The notes under the pieces were generated by a model. The model worked only from the letters and a program-made list of their open reading frames with translations, searched no databases and was not told the DNA's origin. A program made the position numbers and the translations under genes. A stretch of 64,000 nucleotides of DNA from Candidatus Dormiibacterota bacterium (GTDB lineage: Bacteria > Chloroflexota > Dormibacteria > Aeolococcales > Aeolococcaceae), in NCBI GenBank assembly GCA_036732145.1, contig DAINCY010000005.1:443-64442 (forward strand), in the 5' to 3' direction. Of this stretch, positions 45,012 to 52,980 are shown piece after piece; the first letter of the stretch is position 1, and each line of letters begins with the position of its first letter.

Positions 45012-46382
45012 TCAGGATTCGACAAGATCCCTGGCGAACTCTCGGAAGTTGTCGATGTAGCGGCGCACGTCGGCCTCGCTGTGCTGCACGGAGAGCGTCC
45101 AGTTCTCCTCCGCTCCAGGCGCCATGAGCACGCCGCGATTGCTCTGGTAGAGCCAGGAAAGATACGGAACCGCCTTGTCGATGTCGAGGTAGTCGCGGTA
45201 ATTGCGCACACGGTCCTTGCGGTACGTGACGCAGCCACGCGCCGCCAGCGTGAGCACGTGGAAGGGCAGCTCGTGCTCAGCGATGACTCCGTCCAGACCA
45301 CCCTGCAACTCCTCCGCCATGGCGTCGAAGTGCGAGTACGCGGCAGGCGTCAGCACCTCGAACAGCGTGGCGTGGGCCGCGGCGATCGTCAGCGGGTTGC
45401 CGTTGAAGGTGCCCATCTGCGCCACCCGGCCATCGGTGATCGCGGCCATGACGTCCTCGCGACCGCCGATGGCGCCGCACGGGAGGCCGCCGCCGATCGC
45501 CTTCGCCAAGCAGATGATGTCCGGGACCACCCCAAAGCGTTCGGTTGCCCCGCCGGCCGAGATCGTCACTCCCGTCTTGACCTCGTCGAAGATCAGCAGC
45601 GCGTTGTGGCGGTGCGCGATGTCGCGGACCCCGCCGAGGTAGCCCTCGTCGGGTAGCACGATGCCGATATTCATCATCACCGGCTCGACCACGACGGCGG
45701 CAATGTCGTCGTGGGCGGCGAACGCGCGCTCGACGGCTTCGAGATCGTTGAAGGGCACGACCGTCACCAGGTCGACATTGGCCTGGGGAATGCCCTCGCA
45801 GTAGCGAACCGAGTTGGGTTGATCGACGGGACCCATCAGATCACGGGCCGGCTCAACGCTGACGAGCAATGAATCATGGTGGCCGTGGTACGACGCCTCG
45901 ATCTTCACCAGACGGTCTTTTCCCGTGAAGCCGCGCGCCAGCCGCACCGCGTCGAGCGTTGACTCGGTGCCGCTGTTGGTGTATCTCCACTGCGGCTGGG
46001 AGAACCGCCGCGACAGTTCCTCCGCGACGGCGGCATCCTCGGCCACCGGCTGGGCAAAATGCGAGCCGCGCGACATGCGGTCGTTGACAGCGGCAACGAC
46101 CGCGGGATGCGCATGACCCACCACCATCACCCCGAAGCCATTGTGGAAGTCGGCGTACTCGTTGCCGTCGACGTCCCACACACGGCTGCCCTGGCCGCGG
46201 TCGATAAAGACAGGTTGCGGCGGCGTGTCCTGGAAGGACGACGGCACACCGCGCGGCATGGCCCTCGTCGCCTCCTGCCACAGCTGCCGTGACTTCTGGC
46301 GCTTGGCGAGGAACTCCTGCTCTTCGCGCTTGGTCAGCTCGGCGACACGGCTGCCGTCGATACGATGAAGGACCGTGCTCAC
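45012..46382 (-). CDS. class III (omega-type) PLP aminotransferase, glutamate-1-semialdehyde aminomutase-like
   Basis: 456 aa with DVDGNEYADFHNGFGVMVVGHAHP, LIFDEVKTG and the PLP-lysine region. 4-nt overlap with the upstream gene. Confidence 0.85.
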   Translation of the reverse strand: MSTVLHRIDGSRVAELTKREEQEFLAKRQKSRQLWQEATRAMPRGVPSSFQDTPPQPVFIDRGQGSRVWDVDGNEYADFHNGFGVMVVGHAHPAVVAAVNDRMSRGSHFAQPVAEDAAVAEELSRRFSQPQWRYTNSGTESTLDAVRLARGFTGKDRLVKIEASYHGHHDSLLVSVEPARDLMGPVDQPNSVRYCEGIPQANVDLVTVVPFNDLEAVERAFAAHDDIAAVVVEPVMMNIGIVLPDEGYLGGVRDIAHRHNALLIFDEVKTGVTISAGGATERFGVVPDIICLAKAIGGGLPCGAIGGREDVMAAITDGRVAQMGTFNGNPLTIAAAHATLFEVLTPAAYSHFDAMAEELQGGLDGVIAEHELPFHVLTLAARGCVTYRKDRVRNYRDYLDIDKAVPYLSWLYQSNRGVLMAPGAEENWTLSVQHSEADVRRYIDNFREFARDLVES

Positions 46383-47731
46383 GATGGGCCCGTGGCCATG
46401 CTATCCCCTACGGTGGCGGCCGCGATGGCGACCGTGTCTGTCGGCTCGGATGCCGCGTGAACGGCGGCATCGTCGAGTGCGTCGGCGAGAAGATCGAGGC
46501 CCCGGTCGAGGAGCTCTCGGTCGATGTTGAGCGCGCAGTGCAGTCGCAACACATTGTCGTCGACTCCGGCGCGCATTGTCAGGAGCCGTCGCTTCGCACA
46601 CGCGGCCTGCACGGCGGCAGCGACCGCCGTGGCCGGACCGCCCGCGTCGTCATGGAACTCGACGGCGACCATGGCGCCCAGCCCGCGGACCTCGGCGCGC
46701 AAACCGGCGGCCTCCACGGCGGCATCGAGGCGGGTCCGAGCGTGCGCGCCGACCGCTCTGGCCCCTTCCAGCAGCGTTTCATCCGCGAAGAGATCACAGA
46801 TGGCAAGGGCCGCGGCGCACGACACCGGGTTGCCTGCGTAGGTGCCGCCGAGCACACCGGGGCCGGGCGCATCCATCACCGCGGCGCGGCCGGCCACAGC
46901 GGCGAGCGGCATCCCGCCGGCGATGGACTTGCCAAGCACGACGATGTCGGGTCGCACCCCGGTGTGCTCGCAGGCAAACAAGCGCCCGGTGCGGCCGAAG
47001 CCGGTCTGGACCTCGTCGGCAATGAGCAACGCACCGGCGGCGCGGGTAAGTCGCGCCACGTCGGGCAGGAACGACTCCTCGGGGATGACGAAACCTCCCT
47101 CGCCGAGCACGGGTTCGACGATGACGGCCGCCACCTGCTCGCCCTCAGCCGCGAGCAGATCGCGCAACGGCCCGGTCGTTCCATAGGCGACGTGGCGCAC
47201 CTCGGCGATGAACGGCCCAATGCCGTCGCGGTAGGGTCGTTCCTTGCCCGTCAGAGAAAGCGCCATCCAGGTGCGTCCGTGGAAGGCTGCGTTGAAACCG
47301 ACGATGAGCGGACGGCCGGTGGCGGCGCGAGCGATCTTCACGGCGTTCTCGACCGCCTCGGCGCCGGTGCTGCAGAGCATCACCTTGACCGGGGCCTCCA
47401 CGGGCACCATCTCGCTGAGGCGGGCGGCGAGCCGCAGATACGGCTCGTGCCAGGCCACATGGCTGCAGGTGTGCAGAAGGCGCTCTGCCTGGGCGGTGAT
47501 GGCAGCCACCACAGCGGGGTGGCCGGCGCCCGCGTTGAGGGTGCCGATGCCACCGGTGAAGTCGATCCACTCCGTACCGTCGACGTCAGTCCAGGTGGAC
47601 CCAGTGGCCGACGCGATCACGGGGGGGTTGGCGGTCGAGATGCCACGCGGTACCACGCGCTCGCGCAACGACCGGAGTTGGGCGTTCGAGCTCGGCCCGC
47701 CGCCCTCGGTGTCCGCGCCTGCTGGCTCCAT
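46379..47731 (-). CDS. class III PLP aminotransferase, GabT / putrescine-aminotransferase-like
   Basis: DVDGTEWIDFTGGIGTLNAGAGHP, LIADEVQTGFGRTG and VLGKSIAGGMP. The track ORF 46379..48181 was trimmed to ATG 47731. Confidence 0.85.
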   Translation of the reverse strand: MEPAGADTEGGGPSSNAQLRSLRERVVPRGISTANPPVIASATGSTWTDVDGTEWIDFTGGIGTLNAGAGHPAVVAAITAQAERLLHTCSHVAWHEPYLRLAARLSEMVPVEAPVKVMLCSTGAEAVENAVKIARAATGRPLIVGFNAAFHGRTWMALSLTGKERPYRDGIGPFIAEVRHVAYGTTGPLRDLLAAEGEQVAAVIVEPVLGEGGFVIPEESFLPDVARLTRAAGALLIADEVQTGFGRTGRLFACEHTGVRPDIVVLGKSIAGGMPLAAVAGRAAVMDAPGPGVLGGTYAGNPVSCAAALAICDLFADETLLEGARAVGAHARTRLDAAVEAAGLRAEVRGLGAMVAVEFHDDAGGPATAVAAAVQAACAKRRLLTMRAGVDDNVLRLHCALNIDRELLDRGLDLLADALDDAAVHAASEPTDTVAIAAATVGDSMATGPS

Positions 47732-47760
47732 GCACCCGACCTCCGACGCGCCCACATGCC

Positions 47761-47777
47761 TTGCAGAACATCTGCAA
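47761..47777. promoter_or_regulatory. perfect inverted repeat TTGCAGA-aca-TCTGCAA; candidate operator
   Basis: Read directly. It lies in the 87-nt divergent region between the aminotransferase operon (start 47731) and the regulator (start 47819). Confidence 0.4.
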
Positions 47778-47818
47778 AGAACGCTGCACACCCTAGCGGC
47801 GGGTGGTAGGCTCGTCAA

Positions 47819-48670
47819 GTGGGTCCAGGTTTGGTGGGAGAGGGCGTGAGCGCCGAACCGGCGGGGCGCTACTCGGTGGGTGAGGTGGCCCGGATGGTGG
47901 GCATCAGCGCGTCGACGCTGCGCGCCTGGGAGCAGCACGGGCTGCTGGGGTCGTCGCGCACCTCGGCGGGCTGGCGGCGCTATGACGCCGTTGACGTGAC
48001 CCGCGCACGAGAGGTGCATCGTCTCCGCAAGGTGGAGGGGCTGGCCGTCCATGCGATTCGCCGCCGACTCCGCGACGCGCCGGCGCGGGCGCGCTCGCGG
48101 TCCCGCACCCCCACCCCGAAGACGTCCTCCCCCACCATCAACCTCGGCGCCCGGCTGCGCGAGAAGCGAATCGAACGCCACATGTCGCTGCGCGCCCTCG
48201 CCACCGCTGCGGGCGTGTCGCCGTCACTCGTCTCCGGCGTGGAACGTGGTGTCGTGCAGCCCTCGGTCGCGTCGCTACAGAAGCTCAATGCAGCGTTGGG
48301 CACGAGTGTTGCGGCGCTGCTGGGCGCAGCGGCACCGGCATGCCGGCCGCTCGGCGGCGAGGTGATACCGCTCGATCTCCCCATCCCGGGTGTGCGCATC
48401 GACGATCTCTCAGGCACAGCCCAGCTGCTCGAGCCGCAGCGATTCATCGTCGAGCCCGGATACGGCAGCGGCGGTGAATACGCGCACGACGGTGAGGAAT
48501 TCCTCTACGTCATCGACGGCACGCTGTCGATCACGCTGGACGGACACGAACAGTTCGACATACCGGCCGGCACGTCGCTGTGCTTCGAATCGACACGTCG
48601 ACATCGCTGGTGGAACCCGGGCCCGGTGGTGACCCGGGTGCTCTGGATCAACACGCCGCGTACCTTTTGA
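47819..48670 (+). CDS. three-domain regulator: MerR-type HTH + XRE (Cro/C1) HTH + C-terminal cupin (PuuR-like core)
   Basis: The MerR HTH is YSVGEVARMVGISASTLRAWEQHGLL..RRYDAVDV. The XRE HTH is LGARLREKRIERHMSLRALATAAGVSPSLVSGVERG. The cupin is HDGEEFLYVIDGTLSITLDGHEQFDIPAGTSLCF. Confidence 0.8.
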   Translation: MGPGLVGEGVSAEPAGRYSVGEVARMVGISASTLRAWEQHGLLGSSRTSAGWRRYDAVDVTRAREVHRLRKVEGLAVHAIRRRLRDAPARARSRSRTPTPKTSSPTINLGARLREKRIERHMSLRALATAAGVSPSLVSGVERGVVQPSVASLQKLNAALGTSVAALLGAAAPACRPLGGEVIPLDLPIPGVRIDDLSGTAQLLEPQRFIVEPGYGSGGEYAHDGEEFLYVIDGTLSITLDGHEQFDIPAGTSLCFESTRRHRWWNPGPVVTRVLWINTPRTF

Positions 48671-48701
48671 CGCGGTCACCTCACATATCGGGGGTCTTGA
48701 C

Positions 48702-50141
48702 ATGGCTGTGATCGTCGAACCGGTGCGCAATGTGGTTGGCGGTGAATCGGTGGCGGCGCGCGGCGAGCGCACCTTCCCGCTGGTGGATCCTTCGACTGGA
48801 GACGTGTTCGCTCACTCGCCGCTGTCCACGGCCGAGGACGTCGATGCCGCCTACCGGGCTGCGCTGGACGCCTTCCCGGGCTGGCGCGACGCCACACCGA
48901 AGGAGCGCAGCCTGGCGATGCTGCGCTTCGCGGACATCCTCGAGGCCCACGGCCGCGAGCTGGTGGAACTGGAGTGCCGCAACACCGGCAAGCCGATCGG
49001 TCTGACCGAAAGCGAAGAGCTGCCCCAGCTGTACGACACGCTCCGATTCATGGCGGGCGCCGCGCGGTGCCTCGAGGGCAGCGCCTCGACCGAATACATG
49101 GCCGGGCATACCAGCTGGATCCGTCGAGAGCCGGTCGGCGTGTGCGGTCAGGTGACTCCCTGGAACTACCCGATGCTGATGGCAGCCTGGAAGTTCGCGC
49201 CGGCGATCGCGGCAGGCAATACCGTCGTGCTGAAGCCATCAGAGACAACGCCCCTCACCACCGTCCGCATCGCCGAACTCGCCCGCGAGGTGCTCCCGCC
49301 CGGCGTCCTCAACGTGGTCTGCGGGGACCGCACCACCGGGGCGGCGGTCGTGTCCCACCGCATCCCCGCGATGGTGTCGATCACAGGCAGCGTCCGCGCC
49401 GGACGTGAGGTTGCACAGGCGGCGGCAGTCGATCTCAAGCGCGTGCATCTCGAACTCGGGGGCAAGGCGCCGGTCATCGTCTTCGATGACGCCGACGTCG
49501 AGGCAGCCGCCGAGGCCATCGCGGGCGCGGGCTACTTCAACGCCGGGCAGGATTGCACAGCGGCGACGCGAGTTCTCGCCGGTCCGCGGGTGCATGACGA
49601 CTTCGTGAGTGCGCTGGCGGCGCAAGCAAAGGTCACGCACACTGGTCCGCCCTCCGACGAGGACGCCGCATACGGACCGCTCAACAACCGAGACCAGCTC
49701 GCCCGGGTGCGAGGCTTCCTCGACAGGGTGCCCGGTCACGCGTCGATCGCCGCGGGCGGAGGTGCTGCGCAGGGTCCCGGGTTCTTCCAGGAGGCCACGG
49801 TGATCGCCGGGCTGCGCCAGGAGGACGACATGATCCAGGAGGAGATGTTCGGTCCCGTGATCACCGTGCAGCGGTTCACAGACGAGGATGAGGCATTGCG
49901 CTGGGCGAACGGAGTGGAGTTCGGGCTGGCGTCCAGCGTCTGGACGCGCGACCACGGGCGCGCCATGCGGATGTCGCGCCTGCTCGACTTCGGCTGTGTC
50001 TGGATCAACACCCACATCCCGCTGGTGTCAGAGATGCCGCACGGCGGCTTCAAGCACTCCGGATACGGCAAGGACCTGTCGATGTACGGCTTCGCGGACT
50101 ACACCCGAATCAAGCACGTCATGTCGAACATCGAGGGGTGA
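48702..50141 (+). CDS. NAD(P)-dependent aldehyde dehydrogenase (gamma-aminobutyraldehyde dehydrogenase-like)
   Basis: 479 aa with VTPWNYP, catalytic Glu (LELGGKAP), catalytic Cys (GQDCTAATR) and EEMFGPV. Confidence 0.9.
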   Translation: MAVIVEPVRNVVGGESVAARGERTFPLVDPSTGDVFAHSPLSTAEDVDAAYRAALDAFPGWRDATPKERSLAMLRFADILEAHGRELVELECRNTGKPIGLTESEELPQLYDTLRFMAGAARCLEGSASTEYMAGHTSWIRREPVGVCGQVTPWNYPMLMAAWKFAPAIAAGNTVVLKPSETTPLTTVRIAELAREVLPPGVLNVVCGDRTTGAAVVSHRIPAMVSITGSVRAGREVAQAAAVDLKRVHLELGGKAPVIVFDDADVEAAAEAIAGAGYFNAGQDCTAATRVLAGPRVHDDFVSALAAQAKVTHTGPPSDEDAAYGPLNNRDQLARVRGFLDRVPGHASIAAGGGAAQGPGFFQEATVIAGLRQEDDMIQEEMFGPVITVQRFTDEDEALRWANGVEFGLASSVWTRDHGRAMRMSRLLDFGCVWINTHIPLVSEMPHGGFKHSGYGKDLSMYGFADYTRIKHVMSNIEG

Positions 50142-51529
50142 TCGCCGCCGGCCCACGGCGGTATCGTCGGCTCAGCCTGTGGCTCGACACAGTGGACGAC
50201 GACCTCTCACCGCGACCAGCCCTCGACGGCGACTGCGAGGTCGATGTCGCCATCGTGGGCGCCGGGTACACGGGCCTGTGGACCGCGTATGCCCTGATGC
50301 AACGGGATCCGAGCCTGCGGGTCGTGCTGCTCGAGCGCGAGATTGCCGGGTTCGGGGCGAGCGGGCGCAACGGTGGCTGGTGCAGCGACCTCTTTCCCGT
50401 GTCGTGGGACCGCGTGGTCCGCGAGCACGGCCTGGACACCGCCCGAGGGATGCATGGCGCGCTCGTTGAGGGAATCGACGACGTCGCCGCCACCATGGCG
50501 CGCGAGCACATAGACGCCGACATGATCAAGGGTGGTTGCCTGACGCTGGCGATGACCGCTCTGCAGGAGTCGGAGCTGCGCGCTGAGACCGCCAAGACGC
50601 AAGCGCGCGATGGGGCCGACCTCGCGGCGCGCTGGCTCGACGCCGAGCAGGCATCTCAGCGCGTGCGCGTGCCGGGATGTCGAGGGGCTCGGTACACGCC
50701 GCATTGCGCGCGCCTTCATCCCGGCAAACTGGTGCGCGGACTGTCACGCGCGGTGGAGCGAGCCGGCGCGCGCATCCTCGAACGGACCGCAGTTATCGAG
50801 CTGCGGCCGCACGCCGCGGTGACGGCACGGGGCACCGTTCATGCGCGGACCGTCGTCCGCGCCACCGAGGCCTACACCCCGGACCTGCGCGGCCAGCATC
50901 GTGCGCTCCTCCCCCTGTACTCGTTGATGATCGCGACCGCGCCGCTCCCCGATGCGGCCTGGGCAGAGATCGGTTGGTCGCGCGGAGAGACGCTCAACGA
51001 CGGCCGGCACCTGATCATCTACGCACAGCGCACTGCCGACGGGCGGATCGCTTTCGGCGGTCGCGGCGCGCCGTATCACTTCGGTTCGCGCGTCTCCGAA
51101 GGCTTCGACCGTGATCCCGGCGTCTTCCGCGCGCTCGAAGAAGCGCTCCACGACTTGATACCTCAGACGCGCGATGTGGCGATCACGCACCGCTGGGGCG
51201 GCCCGATCGGGGTCGCCAGGGACTGGTATCCCTCGGTGACCATCGACCGCGAACGAGGCATCGCCGCAGCGGGCGGGTACGTCGGCGACGGCGTCACCGC
51301 CAGCAACGTCGCCGGACGGACGCTGGCCGACCTCATCCTCTCGCGCGACACGGAGTTGACGCGCCTGCCCTGGGTCCAGCATCGCTCCCGGCGGTGGGAG
51401 CCGGAGCCACTTCGATGGCTTGCCGTCAACCTCAGTGTGCGCGCGATGCGGGGCGCGGACGAGGTGGAACGTCACACCGGGCAGCGGTCATGGCGCGCGC
51501 GATCGGCCACCCGCCTCCAGGGCCGCTGA
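50138..51529 (+). CDS. FAD-dependent oxidoreductase, DAO family (gamma-glutamylputrescine oxidase PuuB/OrdL-like)
   Basis: The GTG start forms a GTGA overlap with the ALDH stop. Dinucleotide motif VAIVGAGYTGLWTA, then GASGRNGG. Confidence 0.85.
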   Translation: MIAAGPRRYRRLSLWLDTVDDDLSPRPALDGDCEVDVAIVGAGYTGLWTAYALMQRDPSLRVVLLEREIAGFGASGRNGGWCSDLFPVSWDRVVREHGLDTARGMHGALVEGIDDVAATMAREHIDADMIKGGCLTLAMTALQESELRAETAKTQARDGADLAARWLDAEQASQRVRVPGCRGARYTPHCARLHPGKLVRGLSRAVERAGARILERTAVIELRPHAAVTARGTVHARTVVRATEAYTPDLRGQHRALLPLYSLMIATAPLPDAAWAEIGWSRGETLNDGRHLIIYAQRTADGRIAFGGRGAPYHFGSRVSEGFDRDPGVFRALEEALHDLIPQTRDVAITHRWGGPIGVARDWYPSVTIDRERGIAAAGGYVGDGVTASNVAGRTLADLILSRDTELTRLPWVQHRSRRWEPEPLRWLAVNLSVRAMRGADEVERHTGQRSWRARSATRLQGR

Positions 51530-51548
51530 ACTCACGGTTGGGCCGGCG
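51530..51548 (+). repeat. left copy of perfect 19-bp direct repeat ACTCACGGTTGGGCCGGCG
   Basis: Read directly. It begins 1 nt after the oxidoreductase stop and ends 8 nt before the arsR stop codon. An identical copy sits at 52933-52951. Confidence 0.9.
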
Positions 51549-51556
51549 CTCGCCTA

Positions 51557-51898
51557 CTACAACGTGGCCAGGACGGCCTCGGCGAGAGCCGGAAGCCGCG
51601 GCGCCAGTGCGTAGAAGGCCCAAATGCCATGCTTGGAGCTGGTGACCAGGCCCGCCTCGCGCAACCTGGCGAGATGATGGCTGACGGTTGGTTGGCCCAC
51701 GTCGAACGCGGCGGTGAAGTCGCAGACGCAGATGGGGTCGTCGGTCTTGGTCAGCATGGCCAGCATCTGCAGGCGGGTGGGATCGGCGAGCGCTCGGAGA
51801 AGCGCCGCGGCGTCGTCGACCACATGGCCGGGCAGTGGGTCGGCGAGCTCTTGGCAGCAGCCCTTCACACGAGTGGCTGCCATCTGCAGCTCAGTCAT
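51557..51898 (-). CDS. arsR: ArsR/SmtB family metalloregulator
   Basis: LADPTRLQMLAML, the metal(loid) site ICVCDF, and the recognition helix QPTVSHHLARLREAGLV. Confidence 0.85.
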   Translation of the reverse strand: MTELQMAATRVKGCCQELADPLPGHVVDDAAALLRALADPTRLQMLAMLTKTDDPICVCDFTAAFDVGQPTVSHHLARLREAGLVTSSKHGIWAFYALAPRLPALAEAVLATL

Positions 51899-51916: not shown

Positions 51917-51982
51917 TGATATCCATTGACAGCCATCGATGGGACTCGGTACCATCCCCTCATTCAATCGACATTCATCGAT
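51917..51982. promoter_or_regulatory. arsR / cadI divergent control region with candidate promoter and dyads
   Basis: -35 TTGACA (51926-51931), 18-nt spacer, -10 TACCAT (51950-51955). A 10-bp palindrome CCATCGATGG (51933-51942) sits inside the spacer. ATCGA-cattca-TCGAT (51967-51982) and the direct repeat CATTCA(A)TCGA are also present. Confidence 0.4.
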
Positions 51983-51996
51983 AGGAGGCACCCACG

Positions 51997-52044
51997 ATGA
52001 CCTGCGACTGCCCTTGTCCCTGCGTGGCCGGTTCGACGGTCTAG
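51997..52044 (+). CDS. candidate 15-aa Cys-rich mini-ORF (MTCDCPCPCVAGSTV) translationally coupled to cadI/arsI
   Basis: A perfect AGGAGG (51983-51988) lies 8 nt before the ATG. The TAG stop ends 2 nt before the cadI/arsI GTG (52047), which has no good SD of its own. Confidence 0.4.
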   Translation: MTCDCPCPCVAGSTV

Positions 52045-52046
52045 CT

Positions 52047-52505
52047 GTGTCCCGCGTCCAACTCGCCATCAACGTGACCGACATGGAAGCGGCCGTCACC
52101 TTCTATACGAAGCTCTTCCAGGCCGAGCCTGCCAAGCGGCGCCCCGGGTACGCCAACTTCGCCATCACCGAGCCCCCACTGAAACTGGTGCTGATCGAGA
52201 CCGAGGGGGCGGGTGCGACCCTCAATCATCTCGGAGTCGAGGTCTCCTCGACGGCGGAGGTGGTCGCAACCACGCGGCGGCTGGCAGATGCCGGCCTCGA
52301 GACTGAGGTCGAGGACGGTGTCGAATGCTGCTACGCGCTCCAGGACAAGGTCTGGGTCAGCGATCCCGACGGCGCACCATGGGAGGTGTACACCGTGCTC
52401 GGGGACACCGACGCGCCCCACGGATCGACGTTGCGGGGGGACACCAGCTGCGGGGCAGGCGCCTGCGCACCAGACACCGTGGCAGCCGCGGGTTCGTGCT
52501 GCTAA
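52047..52505 (+). CDS. ArsI/CadI family glyoxalase-fold metalloenzyme (C-As lyase / cadmium-induced protein family)
   Basis: VSRVQLAINVTDMEAAVTFYTKLFQAEPAKRRPGYANFAI...LNHLGVEV...CCYALQDKVWVSDPDGAPWEVYTV. This parallels mycobacterial CadI from its first residues. It has a vicinal CC pair and a Cys-rich tail. The track ORF 51939.. was trimmed to GTG 52047. Confidence 0.85.
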   Translation: MSRVQLAINVTDMEAAVTFYTKLFQAEPAKRRPGYANFAITEPPLKLVLIETEGAGATLNHLGVEVSSTAEVVATTRRLADAGLETEVEDGVECCYALQDKVWVSDPDGAPWEVYTVLGDTDAPHGSTLRGDTSCGAGACAPDTVAAAGSCC

Positions 52506-52513
52506 CACGCCTC

Positions 52514-52921
52514 ATGACTGTACGGCGACTTCCTCGAGCTCTCTTCGTCTGTGTTCGGAACGCGGGGCGTTCACAGATGGCACAGGCTTTCTGGGAGGAG
52601 CTCGGAGGCGAGGCCCGGTCGGCGGGATCGCAGCCGGCCGCTCACGTGCACCCGGAGGTGGTGGCCGCGATGCGCGAAGTGGGCGTCGACCTCTCCGACC
52701 GCACGCCGCGCGGCCTGACCGACGCCGATGCCACTTGGGCGGAGGTCGTCGTCACCATGGGCTGCGGCGACGCGTGTCCCTTCATCCCCGGCAGGCAATA
52801 CCTCGATTGGGACCTCGACGATCCCGCAGGTCACGATGTCGCCGCGGTGCGGGCGATTCGCGACGAGATACGGCGGCGAGTCGCCGCCCTTGGTGAGTCC
52901 GCCGTCACCGGTGGAACCTAG
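52514..52921 (+). CDS. arsC: arsenate reductase, low-molecular-weight phosphatase (LMW-PTP) family
   Basis: P-loop FVCVRNAGRSQMA (CxxNxxRS), plus downstream GCGDACP and DWDLDDP. The track ORF 52325.. was trimmed to ATG 52514. Confidence 0.85.
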   Translation: MTVRRLPRALFVCVRNAGRSQMAQAFWEELGGEARSAGSQPAAHVHPEVVAAMREVGVDLSDRTPRGLTDADATWAEVVVTMGCGDACPFIPGRQYLDWDLDDPAGHDVAAVRAIRDEIRRRVAALGESAVTGGT

Positions 52922-52932
52922 AACGCATCGGG

Positions 52933-52951
52933 ACTCACGGTTGGGCCGGCG
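52933..52951 (+). repeat. right copy of perfect 19-bp direct repeat ACTCACGGTTGGGCCGGCG
   Basis: Read directly. It starts 11 nt after the arsC stop and is identical to 51530-51548. Confidence 0.9.
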
Positions 52952-52980
52952 GACCATCCGCGCGGCGACCGTCGACCCGA

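Follow-up and report, generated by a model that had tools for sequence, protein, structure and literature searches.

A conserved family of cysteine-rich micro-genes in ars operons of soil Dormibacteria, encoding candidate arsenic-binding peptides

Background

What is the role of a cysteine-rich open reading frame (ORF) of 15 codons that stands between the divergent genes arsR and arsI of a Candidatus Dormiibacterota bacterium, led by a perfect Shine-Dalgarno (SD) sequence? The ORF, here called the mini-gene, lies in contig DAINCY010000005.1, within a stretch of 64,000 nucleotides that was analysed as a whole and is referred to as the window. The original prediction, made from the letters of the DNA, offered two functions, either a thiol-rich metallopeptide binding As(III)/Cd(II) or a regulatory leader controlling the expression of arsI. 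The question bears on a gap in the ars literature, as a 2025 paper reports that no intracellular arsenic sequestration gene has been found within ars operons (PMC12093948). The mini-gene family described below is a direct candidate for this missing gene, and one that is cheap to test.

Results

Organization of the arsR-arsI locus

The layout of the locus agrees with the original prediction. The mini-gene (51997..52044, plus strand) follows an AGGAGG read from the sequence at 51983..51988 (plus strand), with an 8-nt spacer before its ATG at 51997. It encodes MTCDCPCPCVAGSTV, of 15 aa, in which 4 of the 15 residues are Cys arranged in CxC motifs, and its TAG (52042-52044) is separated by 2 nt from the GTG at 52047 of arsI/cadI (52047..52505, plus strand), a gene lacking an SD of its own, with zero SD-like words before that start. 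The ArsI/CadI product, of the VOC-fold C-As lyase family, passes NF041414 (194 bits against a cut-off of 116) and matches PDB 5d4f/5c4p, which we take to be ArsI entries, at E ~1e-44. It is followed by arsC (52514..52921, plus strand), without evident SD, coding for an LMWPc-fold arsenate reductase-like protein over the cut-off of PF01451 and below those of TIGR02689 and TIGR02691.

Upstream, on the minus strand, the divergent repressor gene arsR (51557..51898) scores 88 bits on NF033788 in a profile search, against a cut-off of 55. Its product carries an N-terminal Cys14-Cys15 pair and a C57-V-C59 motif, i.e. an As(III) site of the CgArsR type, and its best PDB match is the arsenic-responsive ArsR 6j0e, with the CC pair aligned. 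According to the excerpt available of PMC11672702, the As(III) site of the 6j0e protein is formed by two N-terminal Cys and one Cys of C-(V/A)-C. A sigma70-type promoter (TTGACA-18-TACCAT, plus strand; one found, 0.1 expected) occupies 51926..51955, and 62 of 70 homologous loci have an ATTGAC no more than 75 nt before the SD. Two copies of a 23-nt direct repeat, a putative ArsR operator, are spaced by 42 nt, the first (51922..51944) overlapping the -35 box and the second (51964..51986) abutting the SD; these two sites are the sole matches to the operator pattern genome-wide. Of 70 homologues, 68 have the TCGA core directly before the SD, a count that is partly circular because the loci were pre-filtered for operator-like words, and a divergent arsR with repeated operator-like sites is present in most homologous loci. 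The promoter and the operator-like repeats together point to the mini-gene as the first cistron of the operon, which ArsR probably represses. Of the 588 SD-led ORFs of 8-30 aa in the whole 1.85-Mb genome, two reach 4 Cys together with a Cys share of 20% or more, and the second of them sits within an apparent membrane-protein gene.

Two ways of joining the ORF region to ArsI were rejected. The in-frame ATG at 51939 falls between the two promoter boxes, before the point where the transcript is likely to start, and therefore cannot extend ArsI at its N-terminus. Fusion by programmed frameshift, readthrough or selenocysteine is at odds with stop-start offsets that fall in different frames, and the stop in the window is TAG.

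Conservation and selection

Homologous loci were collected from arsI loci, a pattern search of the 161 genomes of the order, fetched loci and a metagenome scan, and they amount to at least 71 distinct intact homologues, the metagenome share being drawn from the matches listed (7 true among 120). Left out before counting were a false match within the C-terminus of ArsI (L050), 8 duplicate loci, and L156, L168 and L183; an outlier of 44 aa (L154) was kept among the 71 loci and omitted from the composition statistics only (n=70). By hand count, 59 or more of the order's 161 genomes carry the mini-gene, as do two genomes of another order. A tighter pattern search gave matches in 72 of the 161 genomes with few control hits, and a loose one over 301 genomes of the class performed no better than its control. 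The SD of the 71 homologues reads AGGAGG in 47, AGGAG in 18, GGAGG in 4 and GGAG in 2, GGAG having itself been a criterion of selection.

The 70 peptides measure 13-26 aa (median 18) with 3-10 Cys (median 7), and comprise 68 different sequences, natural variants that can all be synthesised. Their composition is 41.6% Cys, 20% Asp, 13% Gly and 9% Pro, without Trp or Lys and with almost no aromatic residues, and the median peptide has 5 CxC motifs, as illustrated by MDCDCPTCDCPCC (L142) and MNCDCGCGCDCDGTCDCDCC (L011). In composition the peptides resemble metallothioneins, being small, poor in aromatics and rich in Cys placed in CxC, CxxC or CC motifs. Cys is encoded by TGC 405 times and by TGT 90 times.

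The original prediction had proposed conservation, with synonymous set against non-synonymous change, as a check, and the outcome is that of a conserved coding ORF under purifying selection. Over 20 disjoint same-length pairs, 51 synonymous nucleotide changes stand against at most 82 non-synonymous ones, giving a pN/pS of 0.34 (binomial p=1e-8), a value that the gapless alignments make an upper bound; at Cys codons there are 20 synonymous and 13 non-synonymous changes. Furthermore, the lengths of the mini-genes differ by whole codons. These patterns indicate that selection acts on the peptide, and not on a DNA or RNA motif, and that the mini-gene represents a real, conserved and unannotated micro-gene family of soil Dormibacteria.

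The lowest Cys count in any member, 3, equals the coordination number reported for As(III) at ArsR sites (PMC11672702). With its 4 Cys the copy in the window is a reduced member; its closest relative, MPCDYPCPCPAGITV (L032), has 3 Cys following a change of Cys to Tyr, and L031 and L033, from the same ArsR clade as the window, have 7 Cys each. The sub-lineage of the window may be losing the function, or may have been reduced to a single AsS3 site.

None of the nine members of at least 20 aa hit a Pfam or NCBIfam profile at E<=1, a search in which short low-complexity queries have little power. Similarly, none of 10 members was present as an exact entry in a collection of 15 billion proteins (for one of them the GTG codon of the query was translated as Val), so the mini-gene is probably overlooked by gene callers. 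The belief that no such upstream ORF had been described has so far held: literature searches, with most subscription journals and bioRxiv supplements outside their coverage, returned no account of the family, and the available text of PMC12608789 contains nothing on it.

Taxonomic distribution

A Cys-rich, SD-led ORF ending beside the arsI start was found in 27 of the 110 arsI loci examined, distributed as 23 of 30 loci from the class search and 4 of 5 Dormibacteria-like named records, one of which is titled Chloroflexi. It occurs in none of 75 arsI loci from non-Dormibacteria records (Actinomycetota, Cyanobacteria, unassigned) and in none of 6 loci from other Chloroflexota, and in a sample of 401 Actinomycetota genomes the two matches were both noise. 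The original prediction had staked its case on the ORF persisting in close homologous loci. The ORF is missing from 7 of 32 arsI loci of the class, which use a direct SD or none, and is kept in the rest, so the mini-gene is dispensable.

In the ArsR tree all mini-gene loci fall within one clade (support 0.975), which also holds three loci without the mini-gene, and the solo and arsM contexts described below are scattered at several places, kin among them not being independent. The tree comprises 95 partial sequences, with every third non-Dormibacteria locus, leaves out L211, L015 and the loci lacking arsR, and owes its deep support to FastTree only. Two loci, L211 and L258, appear by sequence to come from a lineage other than that of the Dormibacteria loci: their YchF fragment shares 49-53% identity with the window genome and with actinobacterial genomes alike, a search of 101 genomes for it returned nothing at E<=1e-40, and atlas placement hints at Actinomycetota for one and is mixed for the other.

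Genomic context and solo copies

The supposed link to cadI/arsI proved too narrow. The gene following the mini-gene in the 71 loci is arsI in 50, arsM in 7, an arsC type in 3, a MIP aquaporin/channel gene in 2, a GNAT gene in 2, a CoA-disulfide-reductase-like gene in 1 and an unrelated gene in 1, and in the remaining 5 the neighbour is convergent. These labels rest on tblastn against reference proteins drawn from the same loci, and the names arsM, acr3 and arsN are presumptive. The unrelated gene (L211) is small and has its own predicted promoter; the convergent neighbours are xth (L142), an aldo-keto reductase gene (L155), hydrolase genes (L157 and L163) and ychF (L258). No ArsI match was found in any of five genomes, the four assembled ones with solo copies and that of L185, which are 72-91% complete.

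The solo copies could be remnants of recent deletions, and are, to judge by their codons, not obviously decaying. L211 and L258 have diverged at 25 of 50 four-fold sites of arsR and can hardly be aligned beyond the stop, with the six Cys codons, the length and the stop of the mini-gene all kept; similarly, L157 and L163 keep 8 Cys each at a four-fold divergence of 0.48-0.59. The pattern of neighbours indicates that the mini-gene follows the ArsR operator, independently of the downstream gene, and not arsI.

One genome has both L155, a solo copy behind promoter and operator, and L156, a real-looking copy before arsM without an adjacent operator. At L168 and L183 the mini-ORF runs in frame into ArsI; both assemblies have other broken frames, so these fusions are probably assembly indels. 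A CoA-disulfide-reductase-like gene follows arsI in L011 (2005-3405), L014, L017 and L184, and stands directly after the mini-gene in L185. Its matches lie below the curated cut-off and come from one genus, and the encoded flavoprotein is a candidate thiol-recycling member of ars operons.

Discussion

Function of the peptide

Our preferred reading, to which we assign a probability of roughly 0.6, is that the product acts as an ArsR-induced micro-metallothionein or phytochelatin-like As(III) binder. Binding of As(III), Sb(III) or MAs(III) would release the CgArsR-type repressor, and the mini-gene, having the strongest ribosome-binding site, would become the most translated cistron. Its Cys-x-Cys repeats would chelate trivalent arsenic as AsS3, with a predicted capacity of one ion in the 4-Cys peptide of the window and of two to three in relatives with 7-10 Cys. 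The peptide would then buffer or sequester arsenic while ArsI, ArsC, ArsM and exporters are made, and ribosomes ending on it would reinitiate at the next gene as a matter of ordinary operon coupling. ArsC and ArsI both yield As(III), and no Acr3/SBF exporter was found in the window genome (78% complete), which fits, weakly, the need for an arsenic sink. At 13-26 aa the peptide may not survive degradation long enough to act, and metallothionein reportedly does not sequester As(III) in acute toxicity. The stronger proposal, that we are dealing with a natural ribosome-made equivalent of phytochelatins, a 13-26-residue peptide of the ars operon that sequesters arsenic inside the cell, is more tentative, and we put it slightly short of an even chance. 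If true, this equivalent would at most equal the 26-residue fungal metallothioneins in length, and in some genomes the sequestration peptide would be the sole gene on that ArsR-controlled transcript.

Alternatively, the peptide might be a thiol shuttle, handing As(III) or MAs(III) to ArsI, ArsM or an exporter in the manner of ArsD or AntC, or a small dithiol reductant for ArsC or ArsM whose oxidised form is recycled by a flavoprotein disulfide reductase. We regard this as unlikely, although it accounts for several observations: tight coupling would lead to co-production with Cys-dependent enzymes, the CoA-disulfide-reductase-like gene belongs to the operons of L011, L014, L017, L184 and L185, and AntC is described as a protein that sequesters Sb(III) and passes it on to AntA (PMC12641948). 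Yet the partner is interchangeable among five gene types or absent, the residues between the Cys vary freely so that no conserved docking surface is evident, and CxC outweighs the CxxC of redoxins.

Somewhat less probable still is the second function of the original prediction, a leader acting in cis, in which ribosome speed at Cys codons (Cys-tRNA supply) or arsenic on the nascent chain would gate reinitiation. Its first-cistron position would suit such a leader, and translation of arsI is probably coupled to it, as had been proposed: the arsI SD is absent in 26 of 27 loci with the mini-ORF and present in 78 of 83 loci without it. Among 60 downstream ars genes, 59 have a candidate start at most 10 nt from, or overlapping, the mini-gene stop and one has its own SD; the gap is +1 nt in 35 of 60 loci, the first possible start having been taken, so that some negative gaps are over-called. 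A very tight gap is also what regulation would predict, but second junctions of the same operons are SD-less as well (27 of 31), so coupling is the local norm. We consider coupling of the mini-gene to arsI likely, but ordinary in these operons.

The leader RNA gives this second function little to work with. Folding of the window leader does not exceed that of shuffles (z 0.04), nor does that of the 71 loci (mean z +0.29, with 3 of 71 below -2); no terminator was found in the window leader, there is no downstream SD to unmask, and an Rfam search returned one chance-level match, an archaeal snoRNA (E 0.19), below the gathering score. The precedents fit only in outline. Mycobacterial polycysteine attenuators such as Ms5788A likewise begin an operon with a short Cys-rich ORF; in the excerpt of 10.1101/834739 they are leaderless, with consecutive Cys, and the case studied in depth forms a duplex over the downstream SD region. 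Unlike these, the mini-gene is SD-led, has mostly alternating Cys, forms no duplex over a downstream SD, is not tied to cysteine metabolism and sometimes has no downstream gene; a CC pair occurs in 28 of 70 peptides and CCC in 2, but 42, including that of the window, are without consecutive Cys. CruR, also a Cys-bearing first gene of a metal operon, combines a CXXC with a RAPP arrest motif and acts through Rho (PMC9426467, in the text available), whereas the C-termini of the mini-gene peptides vary freely, with no conserved arrest motif visible. Stalling under coupling would, moreover, presumably cut resistance output, the wrong sign for an arsenic sensor. Finally, the mini-gene is retained under selection in 5 of 71 loci without a downstream cistron. 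Since these five convergent-only copies keep their Cys and no attenuator RNA is seen, a thiol peptide acting in trans fits better than a leader; of the two functions first offered, the metallopeptide fits best and the regulatory leader is left unsupported.

Least probable is a group of readings in which the peptide is a ligand for some other soft metal (Cd, Zn, Cu, Hg) or buffers oxidative thiol stress, in either case simply co-induced by an ArsR without arsenic specificity, or in which it only loads ribosomes or serves as a precursor peptide, for although the ArsI/CadI family name covers cadmium-induced genes and fungal CxC-rich peptides of similar size are copper-thioneins (PMC4755600, excerpt), the ArsR is of the CgArsR type, the identified partners (arsI, arsM, arsC, acr3, MIP, arsN-like; labels partly presumptive) are each arsenic rather than cadmium genes, contrary to the Cd(II) side of the original prediction, 42% Cys is not needed to load ribosomes, and no modifying enzyme is constant among the neighbours.

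Likeness to known systems

The bacterial metallothioneins SmtA/BmtA, PmtA and MymT are, like the mini-gene product, small, gene-encoded and rich in Cys-x-Cys, and SmtB is a repressor of the ArsR family. They measure about 50-60 aa or more, and the mini-gene differs from them in its 13-26 aa, in having no His-containing zinc finger and in belonging to an arsenic instead of a Zn or Cu regulon. SmtA is repressed by SmtB, and a size of ca. 10 kDa is quoted for bacterial metallothioneins, in the part of PMC12193353 available. The Cu-thioneins of Neurospora and Agaricus have 26 aa and 7 Cys in the pattern X2-CXC-X5-CXC-X3-CXC-X2-C-X3 (excerpt of PMC4755600). They share the size class, the median Cys count and the dominance of CxC with the mini-gene peptides, which differ in being bacterial, rich in Asp, variable in spacing and as short as 13 aa.

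Phytochelatins and EC20 have, like the mini-gene peptides, alternating repeats of an acidic residue and Cys. Natural phytochelatins are made enzymatically, with gamma-Glu-Cys linkages, unlike the mini-gene product, which is natural, ribosomal and composed of alpha-linked Asp-Cys, Pro-Cys and Gly-Cys. EC20, a gene-encoded (Glu-Cys)n, has been added to an engineered ars construct, and a (Glu-Cys)n analogue displayed on the cell surface raised the arsenate resistance of E. coli (PMC4611968, in its available part). The mini-gene product would work like a metallothionein and resembles the synthetic phytochelatin EC20.

ArsD and AntC are likewise accessory genes of metalloid operons, and unlike the mini-gene they encode folded proteins serving a pump; AntC in its antimony operon is the nearest described case. 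The new points are size, the arsenic regulon and the solo copies, the last of which imply that an ArsR promoter seemingly driving nothing can drive a micro-gene. Should arsenic binding be confirmed, bacterial arsenic resistance would gain a module for sequestration, functional metallothioneins would be smaller than hitherto supposed, and a compact part would be at hand for arsenic bioremediation or biosensors.

Additional observations

Other Cys-rich ORFs came to light. In an Acidimicrobiaceae locus (L067:1348-1832, minus strand) and its paralogue (L313:1499-1977), a MerR-family gene is followed by an ORF of 22-23 aa with 9 Cys and its own SD. Stop and start overlap, the two regulators, ZntR/MerR/CadR-like below cut-offs, are 73% identical, and one copy adjoins arsR-arsI. 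Among 121 genomes of the order, a strong match to the MerR protein turned up in just one more, with no Cys-rich ORF evident there. Low-GC viral contigs (L316-L350) bear two size classes of SD-led ORF, one of 28-51 aa containing 9 Cys and the other of 12-13 aa containing 4. The 600 nt around them hold no ars gene, and these ORFs are possible phage metallothionein-like genes.

Within the window, a stretch of ~21 nt, noticed by eye, is repeated at both ends of the arsR-arsI-arsC cassette (51536-51556 and 52932-52952), just beyond the arsR and arsC stops, and could represent a short repeat element or mark where an insertion ends. The ars genes adjoin a polyamine-catabolism-like cluster (45012-51529), which contains a profile-scanned FAD oxidoreductase and, as we presume from translations, aminotransferases, a cupin/HTH regulator and an aldehyde dehydrogenase. 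The tail of ArsI (52430-52505), which extends past the part aligned with the solved structure, contributes four additional Cys, two of them as a Cys-Cys at the very end, and is a further possible arsenic-binding segment.
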